Assembly: GCA_963781585.1 (NCBI GenBank)
Contig: CAWAGQ010000012.1
Coordinates: 1-64,000 of the forward strand
Origin: an uncultured Gemmatimonadaceae bacterium
Lineage (GTDB): Bacteria > Gemmatimonadota > Gemmatimonadetes > Gemmatimonadales > Gemmatimonadaceae
Direction: 5' to 3'
Length of the DNA: 64,000 nt
This document shows positions 676 through 62,187 of the stretch, in pieces. The notes beneath the pieces were generated by a model. It was not told the origin of the DNA. It saw only the letters and a program-made list of their open reading frames with translations, and searched no databases. Each line of letters opens with the position of its first letter. Within the stretch, counting starts at the first letter, position 1. A program made the position numbers and the translations under genes.

Positions 676-806
676 GGGGGGCGACCGGGTGCCTAACGAG
701 CCTGCAGGGGGCCGGCGCGCCGGCCGGTCGGAACGGAACGGCGCGAACGCCGGCAGGGTGCGGACATCCTGTGCGTAACGGCGCGCCCGGGCATCGCCGT
801 CGCCGG

Positions 807-1919
807 CTAGTGGTGGGTTCCCTTCTTATAGAACGGCATCTTCACCACCCGCGCCGGCGCGCGCTTCCCGCGAATGTCCAGCTCGAACGTGGTCCCCTCG
901 ACGGCGGCCGGTGTGGGCAGGTAGCAGGTTCCGATGGGGATGTTGAGACTCGGGCTCGACGTGCCGCTGCACACCGTGCCCGATGGCGCGCCCCCGATGA
1001 AGACCGGATATCCGTGGCGGGGAAAGATGCGCTCATCCGAGGTGAAGCCCACGAGGCGGCGCGGAACGCCGCGTTCCTTCTGTCGCACCAGCGCGTCGCG
1101 GCCCACGAAGTCGCCCTTCGGCAGCTTGACGATCCAGCCGAGGCTGGCCTCGTACGGCGTGGTCGTGTCGTCGATGTCGTTGCCGTAGAGCGCCATCCCC
1201 ATTTCCAGGCGCAGCGAATCGCGCGCGCCGAGTCCGGCGGGCGACACGCGGTCGTCAGCAGTGAGCGCCGTCCAGATGGTGCGGGCGTGGGCGGGATCGA
1301 AGTACAGCTCGAATCCGTCTTCGCCGGTATAGCCGGTGCGCGACACGATCACGTCGTTCACGCCGGCCACGTCGCCCACCGCGAAGTGGTAGTACGGCAT
1401 GCCGCCGAGTTCGAGACTGGTGCGGGGAGACAACACTTGTTCGGCCATCGGGCCCTGGAGGGCGAGCAGGGCCGTGCGGTCGCTGGCATCCTGGAGCGTG
1501 CACTCAAATCGCGAGGATCGTGGCAGAATGTGGGTCCAGTCCTTGGCGGCATTGGAGGCATTGACGACCATCATGATTCCGTCGGCGGTGCGGTAGACGA
1601 GGCAGTCGTCCTCGAAGGTGCCGCGGTCGTTGAGGATTCCGGAGTATTGGACCTGTCCCTGGGTGAGGGCGGTCACGTTGTTGGTGGTGACGTAGTTAAC
1701 GAAGTCGACGGCCTGCGGTCCGCGGACGAGAAACTCGCCCATGTGGGACACATCGAACAGTCCGCAGCGCTCGCGCACCGCGCGGTGTTCGGCGGTGATG
1801 CCCGACGGATACTGGACCGGCATCTGGAAACCGGCAAAGGGCACCATCTTTGCGCCCAATGCGACGTGGAAGTCGTGGAACGGCGTGCGCCGCAGCGCCG
1901 CCTGTGTCGTTGTGGACAT
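807..1919 (-). CDS. gcvT: Glycine cleavage system aminomethyltransferase T
   Basis: LRRTPFHDFH, FAGFQMPVQY, GLFDVSHMGEF, SRTGYTGEDGFE, GLGARDSLRLEMG. Confidence 0.97.
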   Translation of the reverse strand: MSTTTQAALRRTPFHDFHVALGAKMVPFAGFQMPVQYPSGITAEHRAVRERCGLFDVSHMGEFLVRGPQAVDFVNYVTTNNVTALTQGQVQYSGILNDRGTFEDDCLVYRTADGIMMVVNASNAAKDWTHILPRSSRFECTLQDASDRTALLALQGPMAEQVLSPRTSLELGGMPYYHFAVGDVAGVNDVIVSRTGYTGEDGFELYFDPAHARTIWTALTADDRVSPAGLGARDSLRLEMGMALYGNDIDDTTTPYEASLGWIVKLPKGDFVGRDALVRQKERGVPRRLVGFTSDERIFPRHGYPVFIGGAPSGTVCSGTSSPSLNIPIGTCYLPTPAAVEGTTFELDIRGKRAPARVVKMPFYKKGTHH

Positions 1920-2137
1920 GGGTGCTGTGAGGTGGAGTACGCGGGTTATGGATGCTGCGCCGCAATATGTGGCGCGCGCGCATAAGTGGCCAGTGCACAG
2001 TCATTTAGACCGATGTTACCGGTCGGGTTTCATCTCGTCGAATGAGTGCGAATGCGGACGCGGCGCGCGATGCGGTCGTCGCGCCACGCGCGATTCGTGT
2101 ACACAAACGGCTCGTTAGGCACCGGAGAGGTGGCGTC

Positions 2138-2611
2138 GTGCGGTCAGAGCGCAAAGGATACACGCTGGTCGAGATGATGATCGTGCTGTCGATCATGGGC
2201 GGTCTGGCGCTGTTCTCCCTGCCCAGGTTCGCGGGGTTGCAGGAGCGCAGCCGCCTGACGGCGGCGCGTCAGGAAGTCGAGGCCGCGATCGCCACCGCGC
2301 GGGCGGCGGCGATTCAGAAAGGCCGCACCGCGACGGTGGTCTTCAGCAACAACAGGCTGTGGGTGACGGTGACCTCGTCGGGGAGCGGGACCCAGACCTC
2401 GGTGGTTCCGGTCACGCCGCTCGACAGCATCTATGGTGTGACGGTCCAGAGCCGGTCGGCTGGTGACACCTCGATCGCGTTCGACATGCGGGGCTTCGCC
2501 AGTCCGCGCCTGTCGGCGACCGGGGTGTTCGTGCTCAGGGGGACCACCCGGACCGACTCGGTATGCGTGACGACCAGCGGACAGATCATGCCGCGGGGGT
2601 GCGCGTTATGA
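2138..2611 (+). CDS. Type IV minor pilin, FimT/GspH-like
   Basis: Prepilin site RKG|YTLVEMMIVLSIMG, ARAAAI helix, FD.RG motif; GGAGAGG RBS before GTG 2138. Confidence 0.85.
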   Translation: MRSERKGYTLVEMMIVLSIMGGLALFSLPRFAGLQERSRLTAARQEVEAAIATARAAAIQKGRTATVVFSNNRLWVTVTSSGSGTQTSVVPVTPLDSIYGVTVQSRSAGDTSIAFDMRGFASPRLSATGVFVLRGTTRTDSVCVTTSGQIMPRGCAL

Positions 2612-6719: not shown

Positions 6720-6721
6720 GG

Positions 6722-12895: not shown

Positions 12896-15427
12896 TCACA
12901 CCGCGACGGCTTCAGCCTCCGCCGGCACGGCGTCCCACTCGTTCCCGCACTTGAGGCAGCGACGATACTCGCCGCGCGTCTTGTTACGCTTGGATTCCGC
13001 GCCAACGTAACCGCACTCGGGGCACTTCTCCGCAACGGGGCGATCCCAACAGACGAAATCGCAATTCGGATAGTTGGAGCAACCGAAGAACGCCTTGCCT
13101 CGCTTCTTCGACCTGCGCTCGGCGATGTCGCCACCGTCCTTGGGACACAGCACGCCGGTCGGCATGGAGCGGGTGCCGCGGCACTTGGGGAAGCGGCTGC
13201 AGCCCAGGAAATTGCCCGACCGGCCATGGCGAATGACCATCGGAGCACCGCACTCGTGGCATTTGTATGGCGTGAGCTCCGGCGGCTTGCGCTCACCCTT
13301 GATTGGCCGGGTGTACTTGCAGTTCTTCGGATGGTTCTCGCAGGCCACGAACGGCCCGAAGAAGCCGCCCTTGGCCACGAGCTTTCCGCCACACACCGGA
13401 CACCGGTCCTTCTCGAGCGACGAGAGGTCGTGGGCCTCGGCAATCAGCGCCTCCACCTTCGCGGTGTTCAGCGAGGTCTCGAAGGGGCCGTAGAAGTCCT
13501 TCAGGAGGCGACGCCATCCCTGCGAGCCTTCCTCGATCTTGTCGAGTTCCGCCTCCATCTCGGAGGTGAACCCCACGTCGAACACGTCGGGGAACTGCTT
13601 GACCATCACGCGCTCCACGCTCTCGCCTAACGGCGTCGGGAAGAACCGTCGCTGCTCCAGCGTCACGTAGTGGCGATCCTGGAGCGTGGAGATGATCTGC
13701 GCGTAGGTGGACGGCCGGCCGATCCCCAGCCGCTCGAGTTCCTTGACCAGACTGGCTTCCGAAAAGCGGGGCGGGGGCTCCGTGAAATGCTGGTCGGGCG
13801 TGATGTCGACCATCGGGATGCGCTCGCCACGCTCCGCGGGCGGCAGCGCCTGCTCGTCCTCGAGCGCCCTGCCCTCCCCTTCCTCGCGCGACTCGCGATA
13901 GAGCGCGAGGAATCCCGGGAACTTCACGACGCTCCCCGTCGCGCGGAACAGGAAATGACGGTCCGCCCGATCGGCGCTGGCCAGATCGAAGTCCAGCGTG
14001 GTCGTGTCGAACACGGCCGGCGCCATCTGCGACGCCATGAACCGCTGCCACACCAGCTGATACAGGCGAAACTGCTCGTCCTTGAGATATCGCCTGATGT
14101 CTTCCGGGCGGCGCGCCGGATCCGTCGGCCGGACGGCTTCGTGCGCGTCCTGCGTGTTGGCCGACTGCCTGGCGCCTCCATACAGTTGCGGCCCGGGCGC
14201 GAGGTACGCCGCCCCGAACTGCCGCTCCAGGGTCTCGCGCGCGTGCAGCGCCGCGCTTTCCGCGACCCGCGTGCTGTCGGTGCGCATGTACGTGATCAGC
14301 CCGACGGCTCCCTCGTCTCCGATCTCGACGCCCTCGTACAGCCCCTGCGCCACGCGCATGGTGCGCTTCGATCCGAGGCCGAGCTTCTTCGCCGCTTCCT
14401 GCTGCAGGGTGCTGGTGGTGAACGGAGCCGCGGGGTTCTTGCGGCGCTCGCGCCGTTTGACCTCGGTGAGCGGGAACGCGCGATCGACGTCCATGCCGGC
14501 GTCGCTCGCCACCCGGCGCGCGGCGCGGTCCACCTGGTCGACGATGCTACGCGCCTGCTGTTCGTCATGAATGCCGACTTTCTGCCCGTCGACCGCGTGC
14601 AACCGCGCCGTGAAGCGCTGCGCGTTCTTCTCGAGCTGCGCGGCGATGGTCCAGTACTCCTGTGGCTTGAAAGCGCGAATCTCACGCTCGCGTTCTACCA
14701 TCAGCCGAAGGGCGACCGTCTGCACGCGACCGGCTGAAAGTCCCTTCTTCACGGTCTTCCAGAGCAGCGGGCTCGCCTTGTATCCGACCAACCGGTCGAG
14801 TACGCGTCGCGCCTGCTGCGCCTCCACCAGGCGCATATCGATCTCGCGGGGATGCGACATGGCCTCACGGACGGCATCGCGTGTGATCTCATGGAAGAGC
14901 ACGCGCCTGACGCGAGCGCCGTTCTTCTTGGGCAGCTGCTCGGAAACATGCCAGCCGATGGCCTCGCCTTCACGATCGGGGTCGGTCGCGATGAAGATCT
15001 GGCCCACGCCCTTCGACGCCTCGCGGATCTCGTCGAGCGTCTTCTCCTTCCCGACGATGGTCACGTATTCGGGCGCGAATCCCTTCTCGATGTCGATGCC
15101 GAGTCGCTTTTCGGGCAGGTCTCTCAGATGACCGACAGTCGCCTTCACACGGTACCCGCGTCCGAGGTACTTCCCGATCGTCCTGGCCTTGGCCGGCGAC
15201 TCGACGATCACGAGCGCGGAGGCGCCGTTGCCGCCATTCGAGCTGGCGGAGATCTCCTCTGGAACGGAGCGGCTGCGGCCCTTCTTTGGACCAGCCGCCT
15301 TGCCGCGCGCGGTTTTCCTGGTGGTTTTCCCACGGGACGACGCAGCCCGCCTGGATTCCCCCCGCCCCGCGATCTTCCGCGTAACGGGGGTCTCCTTTTC
15401 GTCTCTGGGTTTCCTTGTAGATGCCAT
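12896..15427 (-). CDS. topA: DNA topoisomerase I
   Basis: LVIVESPAKA, ATDPDREGEAI, SAGRVQ, GLITYMRTDS, GIGRPSTY, C-terminal C4 zinc ribbons. Confidence 0.97.
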   Translation of the reverse strand: MASTRKPRDEKETPVTRKIAGRGESRRAASSRGKTTRKTARGKAAGPKKGRSRSVPEEISASSNGGNGASALVIVESPAKARTIGKYLGRGYRVKATVGHLRDLPEKRLGIDIEKGFAPEYVTIVGKEKTLDEIREASKGVGQIFIATDPDREGEAIGWHVSEQLPKKNGARVRRVLFHEITRDAVREAMSHPREIDMRLVEAQQARRVLDRLVGYKASPLLWKTVKKGLSAGRVQTVALRLMVEREREIRAFKPQEYWTIAAQLEKNAQRFTARLHAVDGQKVGIHDEQQARSIVDQVDRAARRVASDAGMDVDRAFPLTEVKRRERRKNPAAPFTTSTLQQEAAKKLGLGSKRTMRVAQGLYEGVEIGDEGAVGLITYMRTDSTRVAESAALHARETLERQFGAAYLAPGPQLYGGARQSANTQDAHEAVRPTDPARRPEDIRRYLKDEQFRLYQLVWQRFMASQMAPAVFDTTTLDFDLASADRADRHFLFRATGSVVKFPGFLALYRESREEGEGRALEDEQALPPAERGERIPMVDITPDQHFTEPPPRFSEASLVKELERLGIGRPSTYAQIISTLQDRHYVTLEQRRFFPTPLGESVERVMVKQFPDVFDVGFTSEMEAELDKIEEGSQGWRRLLKDFYGPFETSLNTAKVEALIAEAHDLSSLEKDRCPVCGGKLVAKGGFFGPFVACENHPKNCKYTRPIKGERKPPELTPYKCHECGAPMVIRHGRSGNFLGCSRFPKCRGTRSMPTGVLCPKDGGDIAERRSKKRGKAFFGCSNYPNCDFVCWDRPVAEKCPECGYVGAESKRNKTRGEYRRCLKCGNEWDAVPAEAEAVAV

Positions 15428-16468: not shown

Positions 16469-17655
16469 GATCCGATGCGTTCAGAGATTCGTGACAGATA
16501 GCCGGAGTAGTTTCGTCGCGTCTCGTTGAGCGAGTCGCCGCCGAATTTCTCGAGCCAGGCCTGCGCCAGGACGAACGCGACCATTGCTTCCGCGATGACA
16601 CCCATGGCTGGAACGGCGGTCACGTCGCTTCGTTCAGCCGTGGCGGCCGCGGCTTCACCGGTGGCGACATCGACGGTGCCGAGCGGGCGCATGAGAGTGC
16701 TGATCGGCTTCATCGCGACGCGCACGACCAGGGGTTCACCGGTCGTCATGCCTCCTTCGGTGCCACCGGCCCGATTCGTGCGCCGGCGAACGTTGCCGGT
16801 GCGAGTGCTTCCGGGTGCGCCCTCGATCTCGTCGTGTACTTCCGCGCCGGTGCGTCGCGCCGTGTTCATGCCCAGGCCGATTTCCATCCCTTTGACGGCG
16901 GGGATGGAGAGCAGCGCCGCGCCAAGTCGGCCATCCAGCTTGCGGTCCCACGACACGTGGGCGCCGAGGCCAACGGGGAGTCCGTCGGCGACCACCTCGC
17001 AGATTCCGCCGAGGGTGTTGCCGGTGGCTTTCACCTCGTCGATGCGGGCGATCACCCGGCGTGCCGCCTCCGGGTCGAGCATCCGGACGGGAGAGGCGTC
17101 GGCCCCTTCATTAATATTGTCCGGCATCGGGTCGGGCGGCGTCGCGTCGATGCCGCCGAGATGGGTGACGTGACTCCCGATACGCACACCGAACTCGGCG
17201 AGCAGGCGTTTGCAGATCGCGCCGGCGGCGACTCTGGCGGTGGTCTCACGCGCCGACGCGCGTTCCAGAATGTCCCGTGCGTCTTCGCGGTCGTACTTGA
17301 GCAGGCCGGTGAGGTCGGCGTGGCCGGGACGAGGTCGGGTGACGGCGCGGCGGCGGGGTGACGGATCGCCCTCACGAACCCCGGGGTCCATGATCTCCTG
17401 CCAGTTGGCCCAGTCGCGGTTGCGGATGAGCATCGCGATCGGCGAGCCTAACGTCTCGCCGGCGCGAACGCCGGCGAGGAATTCGATCTCGTCGTGCTCG
17501 ATCTGCATGCGACGGCCCCGCCCGTAGCCCTGCTGGCGCCGGGCGAGTTCGCGATTCACGTCGTCGCCGGCGAGGGGCAATCCGGCGACCATCCCCTCGA
17601 GGACGCTCACCAGCGCCGGACCGTGTGATTCTCCCGCCGTCACGAAGCGCAGCAT
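16465..17655 (-). CDS. aroC: Chorismate synthase
   Basis: MLRFVTAGESHG, RRQQGYGRG, PRPGHADL, ERASARETT, MKPISTL, ERSD. Confidence 0.97.
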   Translation of the reverse strand: MLRFVTAGESHGPALVSVLEGMVAGLPLAGDDVNRELARRQQGYGRGRRMQIEHDEIEFLAGVRAGETLGSPIAMLIRNRDWANWQEIMDPGVREGDPSPRRRAVTRPRPGHADLTGLLKYDREDARDILERASARETTARVAAGAICKRLLAEFGVRIGSHVTHLGGIDATPPDPMPDNINEGADASPVRMLDPEAARRVIARIDEVKATGNTLGGICEVVADGLPVGLGAHVSWDRKLDGRLGAALLSIPAVKGMEIGLGMNTARRTGAEVHDEIEGAPGSTRTGNVRRRTNRAGGTEGGMTTGEPLVVRVAMKPISTLMRPLGTVDVATGEAAAATAERSDVTAVPAMGVIAEAMVAFVLAQAWLEKFGGDSLNETRRNYSGYLSRISERIGS

Positions 17656-20203: not shown

Positions 20204-22207
20204 TTATTTCGAACCGTTGCCCGGCGGGCGAATCGCCGCGCCTTCGTCGATGATGTGTGGCGTGATCAGAATCAGCAGGTCCTGCTTGATCTCCTGGCTG
20301 TCGGTCTGCGAGAAGAGCCGGCCGAGGAGCGGGAGATCGGACAGAATCGGGATGCCGGACCTGTTCTTGGTGACCTGGGTTTGCGTGAGGCCGCCGATGA
20401 CCGCCGTCTCGCCGTCGTTGACGAGGAGCTGGGTGGTGGCGTTCCGCTTGTCGATGTTGAAGCCCAGGTCGCCGCCGATGATGTTGAGCGAGGACTGTTC
20501 GGCCTCGATCGTCATCCGGATCTGGCGGTTGTTGGTGATATGCGGGGTGACCGTGAGGATGATACCGGTCTCCTTGAACTGGACGTTGGCGCGGACCGGC
20601 GCGCCGACCTGGGCCGCGGCACCGGCGTCGATGACGCGGACCGGGGTTTCCTGGCCGACGAGGATCCGGGCCTGGCGGTTGTCGAGCGTGGTCACGCTCG
20701 GTTCGGCCTGGATGTCGGACAACTGCTCCGAGCGCAGGGCGTCGATGAACGACGTGAGGCTGTATTTGCCGAGGGCGGTGGAGAACAGGATGTTGAGGGC
20801 ACTCCCGTTCTTGTACTTGCGCTGGGCATTGGCGACGCCGGCCAGCGCGTCGCCGCCTAACGAAACGCGGCCTTCGCGGTCATCCACGGTCGTCTCGGCA
20901 CCCGGCTTGTTGCGGGGCAGCAGCGTATTGAAGTAGGACGAGGCGCTGCCGAGGTCGTAGCTGACCCCGAGCTGTTCGATCGACGTACGGTTCACCGAGA
21001 TGAGCTTGGCCTTGAGCACGACCTGCGGGGTTCGCACGTCGAGCTGCTTGACGTACGTCATCAGGGCCGGGAGGCGCGAGGTGACTTCGGTGATGATCAG
21101 CGAGTTCGTGCCGCTGTCGGCGGCGACGTTGCCGCGAACGAGGCACCACGCCTGTCCCGGCTGCTGGTTGCCGGTGGCGGGCGGGGGTGACTGCGGACAG
21201 TCCTTCGACAGCAGTCCTACGATCGTGGGGACGAGCGACGAGGCCGACACGTAGTTGATGTTCACCATCTGGGTGGTGAGCGGTTCGCTGGCCTGCCGTT
21301 CGAGGATGTTCTGGTAGCTATCGACCGTGATGATGCCGGTGGAGTCTTCGGTGGCGGCGAGGCCCTGGGACTCGAGAATCGCCTTCAGCGCGACGTCCCA
21401 CGGCTGATCCTTGATCTCGGCGGTGATGGTTCCGGTGACGCTCTTGCCGACCACGATGGTCCGGCCGGTCTGGGCGGCGAAGCCCGCGATGACGTCGCGG
21501 ATATCGGCGTCCTGCCAGGACACCGTCACGCGCTGCTGCTGCGACTGTTGCGAGAAGAGGGGGACCGGATCACGCAGCGCCTGCTGGGTGACCGGAGTGG
21601 TGGGCGCCGCGCGATCGCTGGTGATGGCGGGGACCGCGAGGGTCGGCGGTGCGACCGCGGAATCGATCACTTCCCCGCCGGCGTCGGACACGGTACTCAG
21701 CGCGACGGCCGGTCGCTCGACGACGGGGGCAGCGGCGACCGCCGCGCCCTGGTTTTGCGAATGCCAGGCCGCGAATTTCTCCGGGGTGGCCAGGGAGATG
21801 CGCACCTCGGCATCACTGTGCGAGACGACGTAGGTGTGCGGGACGTCGAGATCGAGCACGATGCGAACGATGTCGGGCCGATACTGCGAGATCCTTATAT
21901 TCAGGATGCCGCCCCGCGCCTTGCGGTCGTAGCTCCGGTCGAGCGCCGTGAGACGCGCGCCCGAGAGATCGACCACGATGCGATGCGGGGCTTCGACGGT
22001 GAAGTCCTGGACCGACACCGGCCCGGACAGGGCGATGATGACGTCCGCGCGACCGTCGGCCGGCACGACGCTGAGCGCCGTGACGGCGCTTGCCGCGGCC
22101 CGCGCGGTGCGGGCGGACGGCACGGTGAGGTGCGCGGCACGCGCGCGCCCGGCGCTGATGCCCAGCGCGAGCGCCGACAGCGTGGCCAGCGTACAGACTC
22201 GCCTCAT
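20204..22207 (-). CDS. pilQ: Type IV pilus secretin with AMIN domain
   Basis: PHRIVVDL (AMIN), QDADIRDVI, DQPWDVAL, LDVRTPQV, TGIILTVTPHIT, GIPILSDLPLLGRLF. Confidence 0.93.
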   Translation of the reverse strand: MRRVCTLATLSALALGISAGRARAAHLTVPSARTARAAASAVTALSVVPADGRADVIIALSGPVSVQDFTVEAPHRIVVDLSGARLTALDRSYDRKARGGILNIRISQYRPDIVRIVLDLDVPHTYVVSHSDAEVRISLATPEKFAAWHSQNQGAAVAAAPVVERPAVALSTVSDAGGEVIDSAVAPPTLAVPAITSDRAAPTTPVTQQALRDPVPLFSQQSQQQRVTVSWQDADIRDVIAGFAAQTGRTIVVGKSVTGTITAEIKDQPWDVALKAILESQGLAATEDSTGIITVDSYQNILERQASEPLTTQMVNINYVSASSLVPTIVGLLSKDCPQSPPPATGNQQPGQAWCLVRGNVAADSGTNSLIITEVTSRLPALMTYVKQLDVRTPQVVLKAKLISVNRTSIEQLGVSYDLGSASSYFNTLLPRNKPGAETTVDDREGRVSLGGDALAGVANAQRKYKNGSALNILFSTALGKYSLTSFIDALRSEQLSDIQAEPSVTTLDNRQARILVGQETPVRVIDAGAAAQVGAPVRANVQFKETGIILTVTPHITNNRQIRMTIEAEQSSLNIIGGDLGFNIDKRNATTQLLVNDGETAVIGGLTQTQVTKNRSGIPILSDLPLLGRLFSQTDSQEIKQDLLILITPHIIDEGAAIRPPGNGSK

Positions 22208-22815
22208 TTCGTCCTCTCTTTGTTGGAATCACCCAGCGCCAGCGTTTCCTGGCGGCTGAAGCCGAATTCTTCGATGGTGAACGTCACTGCCTTGGGATCG
22301 ATGCGCGCGACCCGGATGCGGCCTAACGTCTGGCCGACGCGGACGCGATACTGTTCCTTGGTGCTCAGGTCCCGGAGGATGGCGACCGAGCTGCGTCCGG
22401 AGGCGTCGTAGACGATGCCCGACACCTGCAGGTCGGTGATCACCGGGCGGAGTTCGCCGGTGGCCATCAGCGAGACGAACGGATCGCGCCGCCCGTCGGG
22501 CTGGTAACTGAAGACTTCCCGGTCGAAGGTGCCGGCCGGGCGCTCGACCGAGGGGACGGCGGTGCTGCCGGCAGCGCTCTCCGTCGCCCGGCCGGATGCG
22601 GCCGCCTGCGCCGAGTCGGCCGAGGCCGCGGGCGGCTTGCCGCCCTGCGCCGGCATCGAGTCCTGATTGGCGGTCATGGTCGCCGTGTGGGCGTTGGTGG
22701 CCTGGACGGCTCGCTTCGCCGCTTCCTTGGATTTGGTGATGGGAGGCAGCGACTGGGCCGGCAGGGTGCCGGCCGCGAACAGCCCGAGCAGCACCGTGAA
22801 GCGCGCGCGACTCAT
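22204..22815 (-). CDS. pilP: PilP-like protein
   Basis: FSYQPDGRRDPF motif, GIVYD, YRVRVGQTLG; lies between pilO and pilQ. Confidence 0.75.
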   Translation of the reverse strand: MSRARFTVLLGLFAAGTLPAQSLPPITKSKEAAKRAVQATNAHTATMTANQDSMPAQGGKPPAASADSAQAAASGRATESAAGSTAVPSVERPAGTFDREVFSYQPDGRRDPFVSLMATGELRPVITDLQVSGIVYDASGRSSVAILRDLSTKEQYRVRVGQTLGRIRVARIDPKAVTFTIEEFGFSRQETLALGDSNKERTK

Positions 22816-28247: not shown

Positions 28248-28476
28248 CCGCGGCGCCGAAGACCGTCATCGTTTCATGGCGAGGATAAGCATGGCTCTGC
28301 ATCCGCGGCCTGCAGGAGAACCCGGCGGGGCCGAGATGGCCGTCGGCCGGGCCGGCGCGTCGACTGGCGTGGGTTGCGGGCGGTGCCGATCTCTGGCCGC
28401 GCCGCGCGAGGTCGCGCGGTGGCTCGCCACTCGCGTTAGGCAGCTGGCGAGAGAATCGAACCGGCGCCGGTGTGCA

Positions 28477-38169: not shown

Positions 38170-40750
38170 CCTTACGGAACCCGAAACCTTCCTCCGGTTC
38201 GTACGGGGGTCGGGGTTTCCCCACATCCCGAAGTCGTCGTCCTCGCCGAAGGGATCGCCCGGCGGCGCACGCAGGGCACGGGTGGTCGCGGGAAGCTCCG
38301 CTTGTCCAGCCAGCGCGTGAAGTCGGCCTGGACCTCGGTCCAGTGCGCGCGATTCTCGAGGTTCCCCTGCCCGGCGCGCTGCTTTGCCATGGGCAACCAG
38401 TTCCGGATCCGGTACTCGGCGATCGCCCGCACATCCCGCGGCGTCGCTGTCGGCGGCCAGTAACATCACCCGATCGATCACCGCGCGCTGCGTGGCCCGC
38501 AGGATTCCGGCTCTTCGCGGTCCATGGTTCCGGGCTGCATGCGTACCGCCGCGATGCGGTCGATCAGCTCGTTGAACGTGAGGGGATTCTTCTGGTAACG
38601 CGCAAACTGAATCAGGCTGGGCATCGCGGTCGGCTCTGGAGCAGCGCATCGACCACCATCTGCGCCAGTGTGCGCGCGGCGCCGAACTCGTCGAACACGG
38701 GACGGGTGCGGCGGGAGAAGAGCTCCACGCCACCGTTGAAACCCGGAGGCGCAGGCGGGAGCAGCGGAGTACCGTGTCGGGAATCGCCAGCTCCGTGGGG
38801 CTCAGGGCAAGGAGTAACTGATCCAGCGCCTGACGCTGGCGCGCAGGCTCCACCGGCCGCGTCGCGGCTGCCCATCGCCGCGTACTCCGTAGCTGTATTC
38901 CATGCCACCGATCGTCTTCCGATGCGGATGATGCCCCAGCGATGGAAGAGGTAGAGCGGCACGAATCGGTCGTGCAGGAGTGCAATCGGCTCGCCGGGGC
39001 GGATGTTGCGCAACCCGTAGCGCGCCATGGCCACGCGGCGCACGTCCATCTGTCGCTTGAGGAATTCCACGGGTGTCTTGGCATCGTCCCAGATGCTGAC
39101 GCGCGGATCGGAGCCGTTCTCGGGTCGGCCGTCCTGGTCCGTGAGGAACAGGTAGCCTTTCTTCAGCCCTTCATCGACGATGGCCTTGAGTGAATCGGCT
39201 TCGCTGGCGGGCGGGAAGATGCCGTAGGCCCAGTGGATTGCCCATACGTCGTAGTCGCCCGGCCCCGACGCGTAGGCCTGGCTCAGATCGATCCACCCTG
39301 GGCGTCAATCGCACGCGCGGCGCCGGGTAGTCCATCACCGAGCCGCGCTCGTAGGTGGACTGCGATGTAGTTGTGCGCCATGCCGAGCGTGTGGCCGAGC
39401 TCGTGGGCGGTCACCTGGCGGATGCGGGCGAGGACGAAATGCGTGTCGGCCGGCGACGGGTCGGCGCCCATGAGCGAGGCGTAGATGTTGTAGTCGGTGC
39501 GATTGCGGTGCGAATCCATGTGGGCGACGCCCTTGATGTTCTCTCCGGTGCGCGGGTCGCCTAACGAGCCGCCGAACGACCAGCCCCGCTCGTTGCGGTT
39601 GATCCAGAGCACCATGTTGTAGCGGATGTCCATCGGTCGGCGCCGGGCGGCAGGTCGCGCACCACGAATCCGCCGCGGAGTCCGGCGCGGTCGAAGGCCT
39701 GCGACCAGAAGTGCGCCCCGTTCTATGGATGCGGTGCGCAGCGGCTCCGGAATGCCCGGGTCGACGTAATACACGATCGGATTCTTGATGGGACTGTTGG
39801 GATCGTTCGGATTGGTGCGTTCCAGCCGGAAGCGCGAAATCCAGTGCTGATCGAGACGGCCCTGGATGGGCTGCCCGTAGTCGTTGAACGAGATGCCGAA
39901 GAAGCCGATGCGCGGATCGACGGCGCGGGACGATACCCCGCGTCAGGCAGGCGCACGAAGCTCAGGTGCTGGTGCAGCGTGACGGCGTGTCCGTCGGCGA
40001 GGATCCGCGATGAGGATCCCCGGCGCGCCGTTGGTGACGAACGTGAGCGACGAGTCGAGCCACTGTTATCCGGGAAGCCCTTCGTGTACGGCTGGTAGAC
40101 GGACGACCGGTCGCGCACCACCTGGTAGTTCCCCTGCCTGCTCCCCTGGAGCGTCTGGCCGACGTCGGTCCAGTCCCGGTAGGCGAACTCGTGGCGTCCA
40201 CCAGCACGCGTCCACCCTCGTCGGCGAGCACCGGCAGCGAGGCGATAATGCTGGGCGGGAACGACTGCGCCACAGAGAACTGGTGCGCGGCGTTGTTCGC
40301 GAGCGACGCGCGTAGTTCCAGTTCTCGAAGAGCACCATGACGCGGTCGCCGCTGCGCACGAAGTCCGTGACGTTTTCCAGGCCGCCGCCGCCGCGGTCGA
40401 TGCCGATGGGATTGGAGCCCAGGCCGGTGGCCTGCTGCGCGAAGAAGAGCATCTGCATCGAGTCGCGCGGGATCTCAAGTACACCTTGCCCCTCTTCTCT
40501 TCCGTGTAGATCGGCAGGAAGCCGTCGTGCTGCTGGAAGCTGCGTGCGTTCGGCGATGGTCGCAGCTGCGGGACGGGTGCCGGCGTTTCCGGGGTTCGGC
40601 GCGGGGAGCTGTGTCGGCGGCGTCGGCTCCGGCCGCGGCGCGGGGGTGGGGGGGCGGGCGGGGGTGGGGGTGCACGACAGCGCTGAGCATGAGTGGTCGC
40701 GAGCAGCGCGGTCGCGAGCAGCGCGGGTCCGCGAGAAGAGTGTCCACTAT
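38170..40750 (-). CDS. Zinc-dependent metzincin protease (DUF5117/DUF4953-type); many frameshifts, ends approximate
   Basis: YYVDPGIPEP, DPRTGENIKG, AHELGHTLGMAHNY (HExxHxxGxxH), FVPLYLFHR. Confidence 0.75.
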
Positions 40751-42683: not shown

Positions 42684-43334
42684 CTATGTCCCCAATACCT
42701 CCAGCGTCCCATCGTCCAACCGATGCCCCCCCTCGAACTCCACGGTCTCGAAGGCGATCCCCGCCTCGGTGAGTCGGGCGTGATTCTCCTCGAGGTTCAC
42801 CCAGCTCGCGAACTGATCGGCCGAGCCCGTGACGAGAATGAGCGGCGCGCCGGCCAGGCGGTTGCCGAGCAGCGCCAGGTCCAGGTCCGGCGGGAGCGTC
42901 CCCGCCCACGCCACGAACCGGTCAGCGCGCCCCCTGCCTAACGCGAGCCAGCGCGCCGCGGTCGCCACCCCCTGCGAGAACCCCAGCACCGTGACGCGCG
43001 CGCCGGGCGTCACGACTTCCCCGAACACCGCATCGAGAAAGTCCACGTAATCGGCGATCTCGTTCTCCCGATCCTCCTTCGTCATCCAGGTGGCCCCCAC
43101 CTCGGCGTCGGCACGCGTCCCGCTCGGTCCGACCTTGCTGTAGTAGCGGTTCAGCGCTTCGGGCGCGACCAGCAGCCGGCGCGGCCGCGCGATCCGCTGG
43201 AACTGACGGAGGAACGAGCCGGCGAGCTGGCCGAACCCGTGGATCAGGAACCAGATGTCGGCGGCGTCATCGACGGTGTCGCCCAGCGTGTAGTACCGGG
43301 CGCGGCGCGTCGTCGTCAGGCGGTGCTCCTTCAC
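42684..43334 (-). CDS. Phospholipase/carboxylesterase (alpha/beta hydrolase)
   Basis: HGFGQ, GFSQG nucleophile elbow, FEGGH. Confidence 0.88.
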   Translation of the reverse strand: MKEHRLTTTRRARYYTLGDTVDDAADIWFLIHGFGQLAGSFLRQFQRIARPRRLLVAPEALNRYYSKVGPSGTRADAEVGATWMTKEDRENEIADYVDFLDAVFGEVVTPGARVTVLGFSQGVATAARWLALGRGRADRFVAWAGTLPPDLDLALLGNRLAGAPLILVTGSADQFASWVNLEENHARLTEAGIAFETVEFEGGHRLDDGTLEVLGT

Positions 43335-48037: not shown

Positions 48038-48096
48038 GGTTCAGGCCACCCGGCGAGCGCCGCGCGGCCAGTCATCCCCACCGCTCGCCAACGTCG

Positions 48097-52071: not shown

Positions 52072-53147
52072 TTACGGCGCTCCGTGCTTCAACCAGATCA
52101 CCACGGCGCGAGCGATGTCATCCATCGGCACGCGCTGTGAGCTCGCCCCCGCACCAAGGCCGACGTTATATCCGCTCGAACCACGCGATACGGCGTGCTG
52201 GGGACGGCCACCATTGCCGCACACGCCGCCGCGCGGCCAGCGTTTCGCGAGGGTGTTGGTGAAGTCGGCGCGCAGACCGTACACTTCCACCGCCTCGACC
52301 TCCTCGGCGGTGAAGTCATCCAGCACGGTCAGCGGTCGCGGCAGGCCATCGACATAGACGCACGTGATGGCGTCGTCGATCACGAGGCCGCTGAGCATGA
52401 ATGCGGGGGAGTAACGCAGCGCCGTCGCCAGTCCCGCCTTCAGGTGACCGGCCAGCTCCTGGCGCGGTATGACGGCCGCGCGTGACTTCACCCCCCACTG
52501 CATCCGCTCGTCGAATTCGCGGAGCGGCATCTCCAGGGCCTTGTCGCGGCTCTTCCCCGAGTCCAGCGCCACCGCCAGCTCGATGCCTCCGTCGCGCGGC
52601 ACCACGACCGAGAGCATGCGGCTCACATAACCGTTACGCTTCGTGCGCACCACGTAGGCGCCGGCCGGGACCGTTGGGAAGTTGAAGTCCCCGGACGGGC
52701 CGGTCCTGGCCGTCACCCGGGCCCCGATCACATCGACTGCGGCGCCACCCAGCGGCTGGAGCCCCGGATGCTGGATCACCTTGCCGAAGATCCCGGTGCG
52801 CGAGGCGCGCACGGGAATGGTGTCGAGCCGCACGACCAGCTGGCGCATGACCACCGTGACATCGAGCCCTTCCGCGGGCACGTCGATGGTCCGTTCGTCC
52901 GGCTGGAAACCTAACGATAAAACGAGGAGCGTGTGTTGTCCGCGCGAGACACGGGTGAACCGGAAGCGGCCGCCGCTGTCGGCGCGCGTCCGCCGGGACG
53001 ACGCGTCGCGGTCCAGCACCACCACGCATTCTGGAGCGCGCCCCCGGCCTCGTCGCGTACCGTTCCCGACACGACGCCGGGCGACTGCGCCCCGAGCGCG
53101 GCACCGGCCAGTATCACGGCGGTGCAGGCGATCGCGACTGGGCGCAC
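52072..53147 (-). CDS. Exported protein with carboxypeptidase regulatory-like domains and a plug-like C-terminus; one frameshift near the start
   Basis: VSGTVRDEAG, TRADSGGRFRF, LGFQP, EEVEAVEVY, AVVIWLK. Confidence 0.65.
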
Positions 53148-55841: not shown

Positions 55842-58800
55842 GTGTCACTCGTCTCGATCGCCGTCCGCCGCCCGGTTTCCACGGTTGCCGCCACCCTGGG
55901 CATCGTGCTGCTCGGTTCGGTGTCGTTAGGCCGCATGCCGGTCTCGCTGCTGCCCGACGTCACGCTGCCGGTCCTGACCATCCGCACGCTGTACCCGGGG
56001 GCCGCCGCGCCGGAGGTCTCGCGGTTCGTGGCCGAGCCGATCGAGAAAGTCGATCGCCGCGATGCCCGGGCTGGTGGAGCTGCGCTCGGCGAGCCGGAAC
56101 GGCGAGGTGACCACCACGGCGCGGTTCTCGTGGGGCACCGACATGCAGACCACGCTGCTCAACATGCGCGAGCGGCTGGACAACGCGCGCGGAAGCGCTG
56201 CCGGAGCGCGCCGAGCGGCCCACGCTCCTCACCAGCGACCCGGGCGAGCGCCCGATCGCCGTGCTCAGCCTGGGCATCCAGGGCAGCCTGCGCGACCTGG
56301 CGCGGACCGCCGAGGACGTCTACGCACGCCGCCTGGAGCAGATCGCCGGGGTCTCCGAGCGTGGCGGTGGTGGGCGCGCCGGACGACGAGATCCGCGTGG
56401 AGGTCGATCCCGAGCGGATGCGCGCGCTGGGCGTGACCAGCGACGACATCGCCCGCGCGATTCGCGCCGAGAACGCGACCGGAACCAGCGGGACCATCCG
56501 GCGCGGCCAGTTCCGCTTCACGGTGCGGACGATGACCGAGTTCCGCACGCCGGACGAAATCGGGGAGACGCCGGTGGGGCGGGCGGGGAGCGGCATCAAG
56601 CTGCGCGACCTGGCGGCGATCGACGTGACCACGGCCGACCCGCTCACGCTCACGCGCCTCGACAGCAAGCCGGCCGTGGGGCTGGTGGTCTACAAGGATG
56701 CCGGCGCCAACACGGTTTCGGTGACGAGCGAGCTGGAGAAGGTGGTGGGCCAGCTCCGCACCGAGTTTCCCGGCATCACGCTGACGATCGTGGCCGAGCA
56801 GGCACAGTTCGTGTCCGCGGCGCTCGGCAACCTGTGGCAGGAGATCATCGTCGGCGGGCTCCTGTCGCTGGGCGTGATTCTGCTGTTCCTGCGGGACTGG
56901 CGGCTCTCGCTGGCGATCGGGATGATGGTGCCGCTGTCGGTGCTGGTGGCGCTGGTGATCCTGCAGGGGATGCACGTCACCATCAACGTTCTGTCGTTAG
57001 GCGGGCTGGCGCTGGGGGTCGGCCTGCTGGTGGACAACGCCATCGTGGTAGCCGAGGCGGCGGTGCGGAAGCGGGAGGAGGGGCTGCCGCTCGACCAGGC
57101 GACGCTGATCGCCACCGAGGAAGTCTCGGGGCCGCTGATCGCCGGCACGCTCACCACGCTGCTGGTGTTCGGGCCGATCATCTTCGTGCGCGGGCTGGCG
57201 GCGGTCCTGTTCCGCGATCTCTCGCTGTCGGTGGTGATGAGCGTGGGGGCGTCGCTCATTCTCGCGCTGACGCTGATGCCGGTGATGGTGATCGGCCGCC
57301 GCCGCGCTTCGCTGAGCCAACCGGATCGGAAGCGACCGGTGCGTGCAGGGCGCGGCGTCGGATCGACGCACCCACCCGGCAGTCCCGACGGCGGTCGGCC
57401 GCCAGCCATCTCGCTGGTCACGGGCATCGGGGCGCGCCGGAGACAGGCTGGCTCCGGTGGTTCACCGCCATGGGCGAGTGGTTCGAGGGGCAGTACACGC
57501 GCGGGATGAAGTGGTCGCTGGCGAATCCCGGTCCCCGTGCTCGTGATCACGGTCGGCGTCGCTGGCGTTCACCGTGTGGGTCACCATGCGCCTGCCGCGC
57601 GAGATCCTGCCGCAGGTACAGGAACGGGTGGTGGTGGCATCGCTGCAGCTCACCGAGGGGACGGCGATCGAGGAAACCACCCGCCAGGTGGCCCGGCTGG
57701 AGGACGCCGCTCACGCGTTAGGCTCGACGAATGTGTACAGCCGGGTGGGCGATCGCCACCGACGAGGAGATCCTGGCCGGCGCCGAGCCGGGGACGTCGG
57801 CTACCGCGCAGCTTATTCTCCCGGTGCCCGCGCGCGGCGACGCGCTCGGCTTCGCCGATGCGCTGCGGCGCGCGGTCCCCGACCTGGCCCAGGGCGCGCT
57901 GGCGCTCGACGTGGCCGGCGCCTCGGAATTCGGGAGCCTGATCGGGCGCGAAGGCCGGGTGGTGCGGGTCGAGATCAGCGCCCACACCGTCGAAGAAGCC
58001 GAGGTGTGGGCCGACACCGCGCGGGCGCGCCTGCGCGGGGTGTCGTCGCTCTCCGACGTGCGCGACGCGCAGGAGGGGCTGCAGCCGGTGGTAGAGGTGA
58101 CGCTCGATCGCGACCGCATCGCCCAGCGCGGACTGTCGTGTGGACGCGGTGTCGAACGCGCTGGCGGGCGGACTGGGGGGGGTCGACGCCAGCGAGCTCC
58201 GCGAGACCGACCGGCGCACCCCGATCACCGTGCGGTTCGCGGGCGCGGCCAACGAGAACCTGGCCGCGGCGATGAACACGCTGGTGGCGGGCGTACCAGT
58301 GGCGCAGCTGATCCAGGTCAACGAGACGAAAGCCCCGATCGAGGTCGTGCGCGTGGGTCAGCGCCCGGTGGTGGCGGTGGAGGCGCTCATCGAACGCGGG
58401 GGCACCAGTCACGCGTCCGACGATGTCTCGCAGGTCATGTCCTCGCTCAGGATGCCGGTGGGAGTGAGCTGGACGGTGAGCGGGGCCAACGCCGAGCAAC
58501 AGCGCACTACCAACGAGCTCACCCTGGTCGCGATCCTGTCCGCCGCGCTGATGTTCCTGGTGCTGGCCGGCGAATTCGCCTCGTTCACCGTGCCGCTGGT
58601 GGTGATGCTCACCGTCCCCCTGGCGGCCGCCGGCGGTCTGGTGTTCCTGTGGATGACGGGGCAGAGCATCAACGCGGTATCGCTCATCGGCATCGTCGTC
58701 ATGATCGGCATGGCCGACAACGAAGCGGTGGTGAAGCTCGACGCGGTGCGCCGGTTCCGCGAGATGGGCCACTCGATCGAGGACGCCGTCTTGTTAGGCG

Positions 58801-59153: not shown

Positions 59154-59157
59154 TCGC

Positions 59158-62100
59158 ATGATCCGCTGGGCGGTATCCCGTCCTGCCGTCGTATGGGCCA
59201 CGAGCATCACCATCGTGCTGGGCGGAGCGGTGGCGTTCACGCGGCTGGTCCTGGGCTCGGCGTCGGTGGAGCTGCCCAGGCTGAACGTGTCGATACCGTG
59301 GCCGGGTGCCGCGGCCGAACTGGTCGAGATGTACGTCGCCACGCCGGTGGAAGCCGCGATTCAGAGCGTGCGCGGGGTGCGCAAGACGCACAGCGATTCC
59401 AACGAGGGCATGGTGGCGCTCACCGTGGAACTCGAGCCCCGCGCCGACGTGCAGATCACGCGGCTGGCAATCCTCGAGCGGCTCGAGCTGCTGCAGCCGA
59501 CATTCGACTCGCTGCGAATCGGGCGCCCGTCGGTCACCAACTATGTGCCGAAGGACCTGAGCGAGGAGCCGCTCATCACGCTCTCGATCAACGGGCCGTA
59601 TACGGCCGGGGCATTGGTCAAGCTCAGCACCGACGTGCTCGAGCCGCGCCTGTCGGCGGTCCCGGGGGTGGCGGGGATCGGGACGCAGGGCGGCACGTCA
59701 CTGGGCGTTTCGGTTGCCTACGACCCGAGTTTTCTCCGACAGGTGGGCGTGGCGCCGGCCGCGGTCCAGGCGGCGCTGCTGCGCGCGCGGGTGGTGCAGG
59801 CGGTGGGCGACGCACAACAGGGTTCGATGGAGCGCGAGGTCACGATCCGCGATCAGCCGAACGTGATTTCGGATCTCGACAAGCTGCCGGTGATCGGCCG
59901 GGCGGGCCGCGTGTTCCGGCTGGGCGAGCTCGCCACGGTGCGTCCGGACGAAGACGCGAATGGGGCGTTCTACCGCGTGGACGGCCAGCCGGCGGTGATC
60001 CTGCAGATCTCCCGCCTTCCGGGTTCGGACGCGATCAAGACCGCGGCGGCGGTGCGGGCCGCGCTCGCCGAGCTCAAGCCCAAGCTCCCGCTGGGCGTGC
60101 GTCTCGAGATCCGGAACGACACCAGCGAGGACATGGCGCACGACCTGCGCGATCTGCTGACGCGTGGCGCGATCGCGTTCGGCGCGGTCATTCTGGTCAT
60201 CGCGATCATGTTGCGCGACGCGCGCGCGGTGGCACTGGTGATCGGGAGCGCGGCGGTGGCCATTTCCGGCACCGCACTGGGGCTGTTCATCTTCAGGATC
60301 CCGGCGAACATGCTGACGCTGGCGGGGCTGGCGATGGGCATCGGAATACTCGTGCAGAACGGGCTGGTGGTGGCCGAGCGACTGGGGACGGTGCCCGATT
60401 CGCCGCGAGCGCGCGGCGACGCGGCGGCGCGCATCACGCCGGCGGTGATCGGCGCCACGATGACGACGGCGGTGGTGCTGTTCCCGTTCCTCTATCTGCA
60501 GGGCGACACGCGGGCGGCGTTCGTCCCGTTCGCCTCGGCGTTCGCGATGGCGCTCGCCTGGTCGGTGCTGGCGTCGGTGGTGATGATCCCGGCGCTCGCC
60601 AAGGGGCACCGGATCCACGAGGCCAGCTGGCCCCGGATCCGACACGTGTACGCGCGGATCATCGCGCCCCTGATCCGGTGGCGGTGGATCACGTTAGGCG
60701 TGACGGTGCTGGCGCTCGGCGGACTCACCTGGGTGTTCGTCAAGAAGGTGCCGCGGTTCTCGTTCTCCGGCTTCGGGCAGCAGCGCACCTATCTCACGGC
60801 GTCGATCAGCTTCCCGCGCGGCTCCGATCCCGAGGGCCTCGACCGGTCGATCCGCGAGCTCGAGGACATCGCCGTCGGCAAGCCGGGCGTGGAGCGGACG
60901 CAGGCCTACTCGGGAGGGAGCACCAGTGCCTTTCTGAACGTGATGTTCACGCACGAGTCGGAGTACTCAGCGCGATTCCGCTGGAGATGGAAGAGCTGAT
61001 GACGCAGCGGGCGGTGCTGATCGGGGGGGCGAATGTGAGTGTGCACGGCCAGGGGCCGGGGTTCTACTCGGGGATGGGGTCGATGGGGATGGCGTCGTTC
61101 CGCATCCGGGTGCTGGGGTACTCGTTCTCGGGCGTGGAGGCGCTCGCCAGGGATCTCAAGGAGCGCCTGGAGCGCATCCCGCGGGTGCGCGACGTGGACA
61201 TCGGCACCACCTCGTTCGGCTACGGCGGCGGGGAGAAGGCGTTCGCGATCACCATCGAGCCCAATCGCGCCGTGCTGGCGCAATACGGGCTCACGGCGCA
61301 GGACCTCACGTACGCGGTGGGCCGCGAGATCCGCGGCGCCGCCGGGCAGATGCGGCTCGAGATCGGGGGCGAGGAGATCAACGTCCGCCTCAAGACGTCG
61401 GGATCACGCGAGCGCACGCTCAACGAGCTGCGCGACGCGATGATCCCGACGCCGTCCGGCGGATCAGTGCGCCTGAGCGCGGTGTCGAACGTGAGCGAGC
61501 GCGAGGCGCTCAGCACCATCAGCCGCGAGGACCAGCAGTTCATCCGGGTGGTGGCGTACGAGTTCCGCGGTCCCAACAAGCTGGCGCAGCGCACCCACGA
61601 CGCGTTCATGAAGACCGTCAGCACCCCGCCGGGCTACACGGTGGAGGACGCGGCGTACAGCTTTTACGGGCAGGACAAGAGCGAGCAGGGGCTGTGGCTG
61701 GTGTTCAGCATCGGGATCGTGCTGGTGATTCTGTCGGTGGCGCTGGTATTCGACTCGGTCTGGGCGGCCGGCGTCGTGTTCGCCAGCCTGCCCGTGGCGT
61801 TAGGCGGGGTGGTGGCTGATCTTCTGGCTGGCCAACGCGGCATTCACCCGCGAGGCGGCGGTCGGGGTGATCCTGGTGGTGGGACACGCGGTGAACCAGG
61901 CGATCCTGCTGGTCGACTCGGCGCTCCAGAAGCGGCGCGCCAACCGCCGGCGCGGGGCGCCCGGGCTCGGCATCCGTCAGGTGCTGCGGTCGGCGCTCGA
62001 CCGCGGGGGGATGATCGTCCTGGTCACACTCAGCACGCTGGCCAGCCTGCTCCCGCTGGCGATCGGGACCAGGACGACGTCGCTGTTCGGGGCGATCGCG

Positions 62101-62187
62101 CTGGCGGCGGCGGGCGGGATGACGGCCGGCACGTTAGGCGCGCTGTTCGTGGTGCCGGCGATGCTGGTGGGGCGGCGCCGGCGGTGA
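59158..62187 (+). CDS. RND efflux permease subunit 2 (AcrB family); frameshifted
   Basis: IRWAVSRP, WPGA, ANMLTLAGLAMGIGILVQN, LLPLAIG, LFVVPAM. Confidence 0.82.

Follow-up and report, generated by a model that had tools for sequence, protein, structure and literature searches.

What kind of signal is an eight-base word that recurs in genes and spacers along a stretch of bacterial DNA that also holds type IV pilus genes? We addressed this question for the word CGTTAGGC (reverse complement GCCTAACG) in positions 1 to 64,000 of contig CAWAGQ010000012.1 (assembly GCA_963781585.1) of an uncultured Gemmatimonadaceae bacterium; this whole stretch is referred to below as the window. The original prediction, made from the letters of the window, had proposed a lineage-specific, non-palindromic DNA signal and had set it beside the DNA uptake sequence (DUS) of Neisseria, the uptake signal sequence (USS) of Pasteurellaceae, Chi and the cyanobacterial octamer HIP1. 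In the reading that we favour, with a probability of roughly 0.4, CGTTAGGC is a clade-specific, orientation-neutral word of double-stranded DNA that has built up over the whole chromosome in one Gemmatimonadaceae lineage, and that would serve uptake or self-recognition in the manner of DUS and USS and would be kept by molecular drive.

We counted 19 exact copies of CGTTAGGC in the window, 10 on the forward and nine on the reverse strand; these are the 19 that had been listed, and there are no further ones (Table 1). At the observed G+C content of 0.680, an order-1 Markov model predicts 0.96 copies. The earlier rough estimate of about two copies at ~70% G+C was close in composition and slightly high in its expectation. 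None of 100 dinucleotide-preserving shuffles reached 19 copies (mean 0.93, standard deviation 0.96, maximum five), and under an order-3 Markov model CGTTAGGC was the most exceptional 8-mer of the window (19 copies vs 0.62 expected). The excess was retained under a codon-aware null in which synonymous codons were permuted inside each called gene (500 shuffles): 13 copies in called coding sequences compared with a mean of 0.51 (standard deviation 0.71, maximum four). It was also specific, as no comparable excess was found for other TTAG-containing 8-mers. The window holds 29 TTAG tetramers, 21 of them within TTAGGC, and 19 of these are preceded by CG and form the full 8-mer. One-mismatch variants were not notably enriched in the window; the three seven-of-eight matches reported earlier are all present. 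The density of the word is 0.30 per kb, or about one copy per 3.4 kb.

The codon context of the copies agreed with what had been claimed. Copies were seen on both strands and in topA, aroC and pilQ, and the use of AT-rich, rare codons was borne out: CGTTAGGC contains 10 of the 16 TTA codons found in called genes, and the frames CCT-AAC and CTA-ACG occur once each. A gene caller based on codon usage placed 13 copies in called genes and six outside, and at least three of these six (55924, 57716 and probably 33383) are in frame-split genes. Within called genes, 11 of the 13 copies were in sense orientation, and 10 of the 11 were read as nCG-TTA-GGC, encoding [Ser/Pro/Thr/Ala]-Leu-Gly. By local coding score, 16 of the 19 copies were sense and 17 were in phase 1 (nCG-TTA-GGC).

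The sample of relatives comprised 80 loci retrieved in a genome scan with the PilQ protein of the window, each with 10-kb flanks; nearly all are titled Gemmatimonadota (a few titles name no phylum), and the best protein identity to these loci was 68–75%. We refer to the 40 loci closest by PilQ as near and to the other 40 as far, and all comparative counts concern these syntenic loci, not whole genomes. The 80 loci held 268 copies of CGTTAGGC in 1.23 Mb, very unevenly spread. In the near loci, the word was by far the top 8-mer (257 copies vs 13.2 expected under the order-3 model), and the near loci and the window together had 276 copies in 684 kb, vs 11.5 under the order-1 model (~24-fold). The far loci had 11 copies vs 9.6 expected; eight of the 11 were in two loci, L042 and L066, and the word was essentially absent from the remaining 38. 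Among loci of at least 10 kb, enrichment was significant at p < 0.01 in 26 of 31 near loci, which answers for its presence in independently assembled relatives, and in two of 32 far loci (L042 and L066). Densities in near loci of this length ranged from 0.05 to 1.38 per kb, corresponding to 3- to 60-fold over expectation, and differed 25-fold between close relatives. Under the codon-aware null, the relatives had 199 copies vs 6.65 expected, and 117 of their 206 TTA codons were inside the word. The codon-aware null and the relatives' loci thus agree on a lineage-specific, non-palindromic constraint that acts on the DNA and not on the protein.

On a phylogenetic tree of PilQ, word-bearing metagenome-assembled genomes (MAGs) fell into one clade of 38 rows, with a Shimodaira–Hasegawa-like approximate likelihood ratio support of 97. 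The tree includes 77 of 81 sequences, those with one high-scoring segment pair of at least 350 residues (L027, L051, L053 and L071 are left out by this filter). The sister pair of the word-bearing clade, L028 and L032, has zero copies. L042 and L066 form a separate small word-bearing pair, and their own sisters, L040 and L065, are without copies. The copy sites of this pair are not common to the main clade. The word was gained in one lineage and seemingly in a second; its presence in L042 and L066 reflects either an ancient origin with losses or an independent acquisition of the same specificity. The pair consists of a Gemmatirosa-labelled MAG and a relative, with a G+C content of 0.74 and 0.23–0.25 copies per kb (L042 at 144, 3107 and 10920; L066 at 6123, 8624, 19105, 19848 and 20596).

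In the near loci and the window, 212 of the 276 copies are in coding sequence and 64 are outside called genes. Non-coding DNA makes up 13.3% of the bases and carries 58 of 257 copies, a 1.7-fold excess (p = 3.5e-5) that is somewhat inflated by missed genes. We mapped 200 of the 212 coding copies on aligned orthologous proteins; the remaining 12 belong to gene clusters with four members at most. The mapped copies correspond to 74 distinct sites, 38 of them found in a single MAG only and the rest common to 2–15 MAGs. Of the 606 words that stand in place of CGTTAGGC in orthologues at sense phase-1 sites, 218 encode Leu-Gly, most often as CTC-GGC (83) and CTG-GGC (34), and decayed forms such as CGTTAGGT are seen at the same alignment columns as CGTTAGGC. 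The Leu-Gly words with common codons and the decayed forms at orthologous columns show that copies arise by substitution, not by insertion. An extended motif or a mobile element, such as a repetitive extragenic palindrome or a miniature inverted-repeat transposable element, was rejected: no conserved flank was found outside the eight bases in 275 aligned contexts (at most ~0.3 bit at any flank position), and copies replace synonymous words without a change in length.

Copies are also unusually persistent. Where two genomes share an identical [STPA]-Leu-Gly tripeptide and the first encodes it with the word, the 8-mer is unchanged in the second in 508 of 1296 pairs (39%), vs 372 of 3786 pairs (9.8%) for other words; the pairs are not phylogenetically independent, and both classes share the same tree. 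Retention at orthologous positions is thus four times as frequent for CGTTAGGC as for the other synonymous words. Across the clade it occupies 127 of the 543 compatible [STPA]-Leu-Gly sites. The word is maintained either by selection or by a transmission bias, in both cases strong enough to override codon preference.

Tolerance of change differed along the word. Variants at positions 1 and 8 were 2.5- to 8-fold enriched in the near clade and depleted in the far clade, and changes at positions 2, 3, 5 and 7 showed no enrichment. This position-wise pattern points to a functional core of roughly GTTAGG with softer ends. The one-mismatch variant CGTTATGC, found in the window at 24137 (+) and 25314 (-) and in 46 copies in near loci, is 4.5-fold enriched. 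We rejected it as a dialect of the motif, as it largely represents one conserved orthologous context flanking pilM, near pilM/pilN.

The strand distribution of the copies was assessed both by copies and by independent sites. Coding copies in the clade numbered 141 sense and 71 antisense, close to the ratio of synonymous opportunities (847:442). Counted as 74 independent sites, the split was 35 sense (27 + 8) and 39 antisense (15 + 24); some of the antisense sites seen only once fall in a region of PilQ with many alignment gaps and may represent a single misaligned site, and merging them gives ~35:35 and leaves the conclusion unchanged. The 35:39 split indicates that the sense bias of the window reflects a longer persistence of copies synonymous with conserved Leu-Gly rather than an RNA-level function. 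A transcription-strand signal was rejected accordingly, the 2:1 sense excess matching synonymous opportunities and vanishing by independent sites. Of the 212 coding copies, 200 are in forward-strand genes; because the loci are syntenic and their genes are almost all on one strand, the 35:39 split also tests chromosomal strand polarity. A skew of 75% was rejected by the independent sites (p = 3e-5) and by the 10:9 split of the window (p = 0.03). Along the window, the orientation of the word flips with gene direction four times, not once. GC skew at third codon positions, used as a proxy for replication direction, was negative on the sense strand everywhere and showed no correlation with motif orientation. 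The signal therefore acts on double-stranded DNA without strand polarity.

Subgroups of the clade differed in the frames that they use. Sense phase-1 occupancy was 13–37% in every subgroup. The antisense frame nGC-CTA-ACG was used at 0–6% of compatible sites in the part of the clade that includes the window, and at 15–52% in two other subgroups. Examples of this contrast are L017, L038, L022 and L013 vs L026, L037 and L011; the TTA frame is used everywhere. Some MAGs have mostly antisense copies, such as L038 with eight antisense and five sense. We rejected a polarity inversion between subclades, since sense occupancy stays high and only the CTA-containing antisense frame differs, possibly because the subgroups tolerate the CTA codon to different degrees.

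These results bear on several other explanations. A signal at the level of RNA or translation, in which the rare TTA would act as a bldA-like pause or regulatory codon or the word as an mRNA motif, would suit the predominance of sense copies in a single frame in the window and the concentration of over half of all TTA codons in the word. We consider it very unlikely, as 39 of the 74 independent sites are antisense, 64 of the 276 copies are outside called genes, L038 is mostly antisense, and no Rfam family matched in the window. A Chi-like recombination hotspot read by RecBCD/AddAB, or a polar signal read by FtsK (of the type of the FtsK orienting polar sequences, KOPS, or the architecture imparting sequences, AIMS), is brought to mind by an eight-base, non-palindromic word that occurs about once in 3.4 kb and in the window is mostly sense and in phase 1. 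E. coli Chi is mostly on the sense strand in one codon frame, with a modest, codon-driven excess. The lack of strand skew, in the window as at the independent sites, tells against this part of the original comparison, as do the four orientation flips and the subclade difference that is not a polarity inversion. An enrichment of 20- to 60-fold built from rare codons, with 25-fold differences in density, is moreover unlike the Chi excess, and we regard this explanation as improbable. The window encodes neither RecBCD nor AddAB.

A HIP1-like word tied to modification or repair would owe its numbers to a clade-specific methyltransferase or to a very-short-patch-like mismatch repair that inflates its count independently of uptake. 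We judge this unlikely, even if the sharp clade boundaries and the second lineage (L042 and L066) would fit one enzyme gene having been gained or lost. We know of no contiguous 8-base asymmetric methyltransferase targets. The depletion of substrate words expected from such a repair is absent: observed/expected ratios of one-transition neighbours, near vs far, were 0.32 vs 0.30 for CGCTAGGC and 0.44 vs 0.45 for CGTTGGGC, no more depleted near than far. Neither a methyltransferase nor a Vsr-type gene was among the family hits of the 64-kb window. In how strongly it is over-represented and how well it is conserved at orthologous sites, CGTTAGGC resembles what is reported for HIP1, which is recognised by two methylases (10.64898/2026.06.24.733823); HIP1 is palindromic and CGTTAGGC is not. 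Binding sites of an abundant clade-specific protein (nucleoid-associated, chromosome-organising or a global regulator), with selection on their number, would explain a word that is orientation-neutral, present in genes and spacers and in 1.7-fold non-coding excess. Against such sites, which we likewise regard as improbable, stand inner positions (2, 3, 5 and 7) that tolerate almost nothing, where the known nucleoid proteins tolerate degenerate sites, the 212 of 276 copies in coding sequence, and a 25-fold density range among close relatives that is hard to fit to an essential architectural role. The many frame-split genes of the window make its base-level quality questionable and with it raise a sequencing, basecalling or assembly artefact of a single record, which we find scarcely credible. 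The word tops the 8-mers in loci from dozens of independently assembled MAGs and occurs at orthologous codons. A double-transition miscall of CGCTGGGC was rejected too, as that word is not depleted (19 copies). Independence of the MAGs was judged from the contig-naming styles of several assemblers, and the differing styles among word-bearing loci exclude an artefact of one technology.

For the favoured reading, we infer a link to uptake, a receptor and a drive mechanism. Word-bearing fragments would be preferred by a DNA receptor that belongs to the type IV pilus or competence pathway and is exposed on the surface or in the periplasm, and such fragments would enter the cell and recombine more frequently. 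Point mutations would then spread where they create the word and be replaced where they destroy it, which amounts to molecular drive. In the window, the pilMNOPQ operon is complete and is accompanied by a PilA-like pilin and two sets of minor pilins. More tentatively still, CGTTAGGC might be the first uptake sequence outside Proteobacteria: this Gemmatimonadaceae lineage would be naturally transformable and would import DNA of its own clade selectively via the type IV pilus and a receptor unrelated to ComP, and the word in L042 and L066 would mark a shared exchange community. We consider this extended version slightly less probable than the favoured reading.

Several observations weigh against an uptake function. 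Classical uptake systems have about one word per kb, and the density in the window is lower. Neisserial DUS often form terminators as inverted pairs, and there was one overlapping inverted pair among the 276 copies; hairpins at 57 intergenic copies were no more stable than those in 457 control windows (p = 0.40). No depletion in accessory genes was seen (0.378 per kb in conserved vs 0.362 in rare genes, a small sample), and no even spacing in the window, where the coefficient of variation of 1.05 is as for random placement. The pilus genes, on which the original prediction drew for the uptake idea, are no less present in the motif-free clade, where they are syntenic and have the minor-pilin cluster beside them. 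None of the eight pilin-like proteins of the window matched a ComP-type Pfam family, even at E <= 1; to our knowledge, no receptor is known for USS systems either. We found no literature report of natural competence in any Gemmatimonadota. The absence of polarity itself is judged from contiguity and synteny rather than from the direction of replication. Dipeptides encoded by the motif showed no shift between the near and far clades; in three proteomes, the tripeptides of uptake sequences were increased about twofold (PMC2817400).

Candidates for what reads the word were sought among the pilus genes and their neighbours. The presence or absence of pilus genes was rejected as an explanation of the distribution of the motif, the cluster being syntenic in both clades. 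Directly after pilQ, the window encodes an 817-residue lipoprotein-like protein (17732-20185, -) that belongs to no Pfam or NCBIfam family. Of the 40 near loci, 35 have it in conserved form (median identity 70%), and 30 of the 40 far loci have homologues that are only ~30% identical. In the motif-free L028, a single case, the protein is missing and aroC directly follows pilQ. An AlphaFold model (mean predicted local distance difference test score 73) has Ig-like domains and a beta-propeller. As a DNA receptor the protein was rejected: structure comparison gave only generic Ig-array and propeller folds of the PDB with template modelling scores <0.3, and the atlas leads to YncE/lactonase propellers were sub-threshold.

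We compared CGTTAGGC with the known word systems. A word of duplex DNA that is read in either orientation and is held in place against codon preference bears the signature of the Neisseriaceae and Pasteurellaceae uptake sequences and of HIP1. DUS are bound by the ComP minor pilin (PMC3868556). Like the DUS of Neisseriaceae, CGTTAGGC is short, non-palindromic, hyper-abundant and family-restricted, lies on both strands and in genes and spacers at a density that varies with lineage, and is accompanied by type IV pilus machinery. It differs from DUS in belonging to another phylum, in being an unrelated 8-base word without conserved flanks, and in the lack of inverted-pair terminators and of a detectable ComP-type family in the window. 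With the Pasteurellaceae USS it shares a mostly coding location (212 of 276 here), a frame bias set by the peptides and codons able to accommodate the word, and an origin by point mutation at orthologous sites. USS have an AT-rich flank; CGTTAGGC has no such flanking pattern and, unlike USS, no measurable effect on the proteome. In H. influenzae, 65% of USS are in coding regions, and their frame use correlates with preferred codons (PMC2817400), whereas the frames of CGTTAGGC use rare ones. HIP1 (GCGATCGC) is likewise a hyper-abundant octamer conserved at orthologous sites, over-represented 15- to 300-fold (PMC5861425), a fold range similar to that found here. Unlike HIP1, which is palindromic and phylum-wide, CGTTAGGC is asymmetric and found in part of one family. 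Like Chi and KOPS, it is an 8-base asymmetric word that occurs once per few kb and, in the window, often in one sense codon frame; it departs from them in its lack of strand polarity, its far higher over-representation, its make-up of rare codons and a density that is highly uneven between close relatives. Chi is markedly skewed in line with replication, and KOPS very strongly so in the direction of dif.

Lineage-specific, hyper-abundant DNA words are a known kind of element; for this Gemmatimonadaceae word we found no previous report. Full-text searches, with many subscription-journal papers outside their scope, returned no over-represented word, uptake sequence or natural transformation for Gemmatimonadota, and the CGTTAGGC 8-mer itself occurred only in what the titles suggest are unrelated primer or construct sequences. 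Sequence-selective DNA uptake is described as established in only two proteobacterial families (10.1101/2025.10.24.684340). HIP1, long of unknown function, is now argued to be an uptake watermark that acts through methylation (10.64898/2026.06.24.733823), which would make it a third case of selective uptake. If CGTTAGGC is an uptake word, this would suggest that self-biased gene exchange is commoner among environmental bacteria than thought, and a phylum that is hard to manipulate would gain a handle for genetics, such as the inclusion of the word in transforming DNA. The host lineage is described as widespread in soil and freshwater. The word would also be of use as a simple k-mer marker, both in binning and in the detection of foreign DNA in such genomes. 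Should its function be another, CGTTAGGC would still represent a strong, unexplained force on the genome, as it prevails over codon preference at roughly one in four compatible Leu-Gly sites.

The individual copies are listed in Table 1. Copy 55924 was called intergenic by the gene caller because AcrB-like gene 1 is split across frames, and the frame of copy 62132 is ambiguous because AcrB-like gene 2 is split likewise.

Table 1. Exact copies and seven-of-eight variants of CGTTAGGC in the 64,000-base window, with gene context and occurrence in relatives (col, alignment column).
Feature	Position	Strand	Context in the window	In relatives
Exact copy	691..698	-	Intergenic: MoCF/mog-like gene (181-675, -) / gcvT (807-1919, -)	
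Exact copy	2113..2120	+	Intergenic, 18 bases 5' of start of GspH/FimT-like minor pilin gene (2138-2611, +)	
Exact copy	13625..13632	-	topA, sense, nCG-TTA-GGC, peptide PTPLGESV	Motif at orthologous position in 15/30 aligned relatives (cluster 8 col 662)
Exact copy	17446..17453	-	aroC, sense, TTA-GGC frame, GETLGSPI	Motif in 8/33 relatives (cluster 7 col 73)
Exact copy	20855..20862	-	pilQ, sense, TTA-GGC frame, RVSLGGDA	Common to L008 and L010 (cluster 1 col 611)
Exact copy	22321..22328	-	pilP-like gene, sense, TTA-GGC frame, GQTLGRIR	Motif in 11/39 relatives, CGTTAGGT in 3 others (cluster 2 col 297)
Exact copy	23004..23011	-	pilO, sense, TTA-GGC frame, FHALGAFL	Motif in 5/36 (cluster 4 col 139)
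Exact copy	26053..26060	+	Antisense in PilX-like minor pilin gene (25625-26785, -), frame nnG-CCT-AAC-Gnn (Pro-Asn)	Common to L003 (cluster 10 col 272)
Exact copy	27235..27242	+	Antisense in prepilin-type gene (26896-27843, -), frame nGC-CTA-ACG (Leu-Thr)	
Exact copy	28434..28441	+	Intergenic: PilV-like gene (27840-28202, -) / PilA-like major pilin gene (28545-28952, -)	
Exact copy	33383..33390	-	Poorly resolved stretch; long open reading frame (ORF) 31380-33524 (-), no family match; coding status uncertain	
Exact copy	39559..39566	-	Fragmentary Met-zincin-like ORF (39283-39633, -), sense, TTA-GGC frame, GGSLGDPR	
Exact copy	42936..42943	-	Serine hydrolase/carboxylesterase-like gene (42684-43334, -), sense, TTA-GGC frame, WLALGRGR	
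Exact copy	55924..55931	+	Near 5' end of AcrB-like gene 1 (frame of ORF 55842-57509), sense, TTA-GGC frame	
Exact copy	56995..57002	+	AcrB-like gene 1, sense, TTA-GGC frame, VLSLGGLA	
Exact copy	57716..57723	+	Frame-shifted middle of AcrB-like gene 1; phase 1 (TTA-GGC) in ORF 57574-58275, which bears the AcrB match	
Exact copy	60692..60699	+	AcrB-like gene 2 (59158-60999), sense, TTA-GGC frame, WITLGVTV	
Exact copy	61798..61805	+	AcrB-like gene 2 (frame of 60987-62345), sense, TTA-GGC frame, PVALGGVV	
Exact copy	62132..62139	+	3' end of AcrB-like gene 2; GTT-AGG in called ORF, TTA-GGC by local coding score	
7/8 variant CGTTAGGT (last position)	52909..52916	-		Variant 8-fold enriched in clade
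7/8 variant TGTTAGGC (first position)	58792..58799	+		Variant 3.6-fold enriched in clade
7/8 variant AGTTAGGC (first position)	63199..63206	+		Variant 2.8-fold enriched in clade

Family searches assigned the genes of the window as follows: a mog-like gene, gcvT and the first minor-pilin set (2138-5107); an OTCase-family (ornithine/aspartate carbamoyltransferase) gene, hslUV, xerC, trmFO, topA, aroK and aroC; pilQ-P-O-N-M, the second minor-pilin set (25625-28247) and the PilA-like pilin (28545-28952); and a glycosyltransferase, a two-component system, PPK2 and two tandem AcrB-like transporters. The two minor-pilin sets are paralogous, one at 2138-5107 (+) and the other in the region 25625-28952 (-), which includes the PilA-like major pilin. 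The first comprises GspH/FimT-like, PilV-like, PilW-like and PilX-like genes, the second PilX-like, PilW-like and PilV-like genes. The second set adjoins pilM, an arrangement that is syntenic in relatives.

The first 25 kb of the window appears intact, and many genes in 30000-62345 are frame-split (e.g., 34711-36076, 41338-42082, 48072-50868, 55842-59153 and 59158-62345). Three pieces make up AcrB-like gene 1 (profile positions 166-486, 542-590 and 732-1020) and two make up AcrB-like gene 2 (1-608 and 670-912). Other split genes are a PALP enzyme (two pieces), a kinase with its HisKA and HATPase domains in different frames, and an ADOP/FtsX permease present as fragments. The pattern suggests assembly indel errors or a run of pseudogenes, and the breaks are not located at copies of CGTTAGGC.

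Two tandem repeats were present in the window: an array of ~130 bases based on AGGCCAAAGG at 36486-36615, with periods of 14, 21 and 35, and a (CCCCTC)n repeat of ~40 bases at 42155-42196. Another 8-mer, GCTGGTGG, which we take to be the Chi word of E. coli, had 29 copies in the window (16 on the forward and 13 on the reverse strand, without strand skew) vs 2.9 expected under the order-1 model, and was not exceptional under order 3. Examples are at 2721, 14411 and 56070 (+) and at 303, 18877 and 49568 (-). Its excess probably reflects CTG-GTG codon usage.

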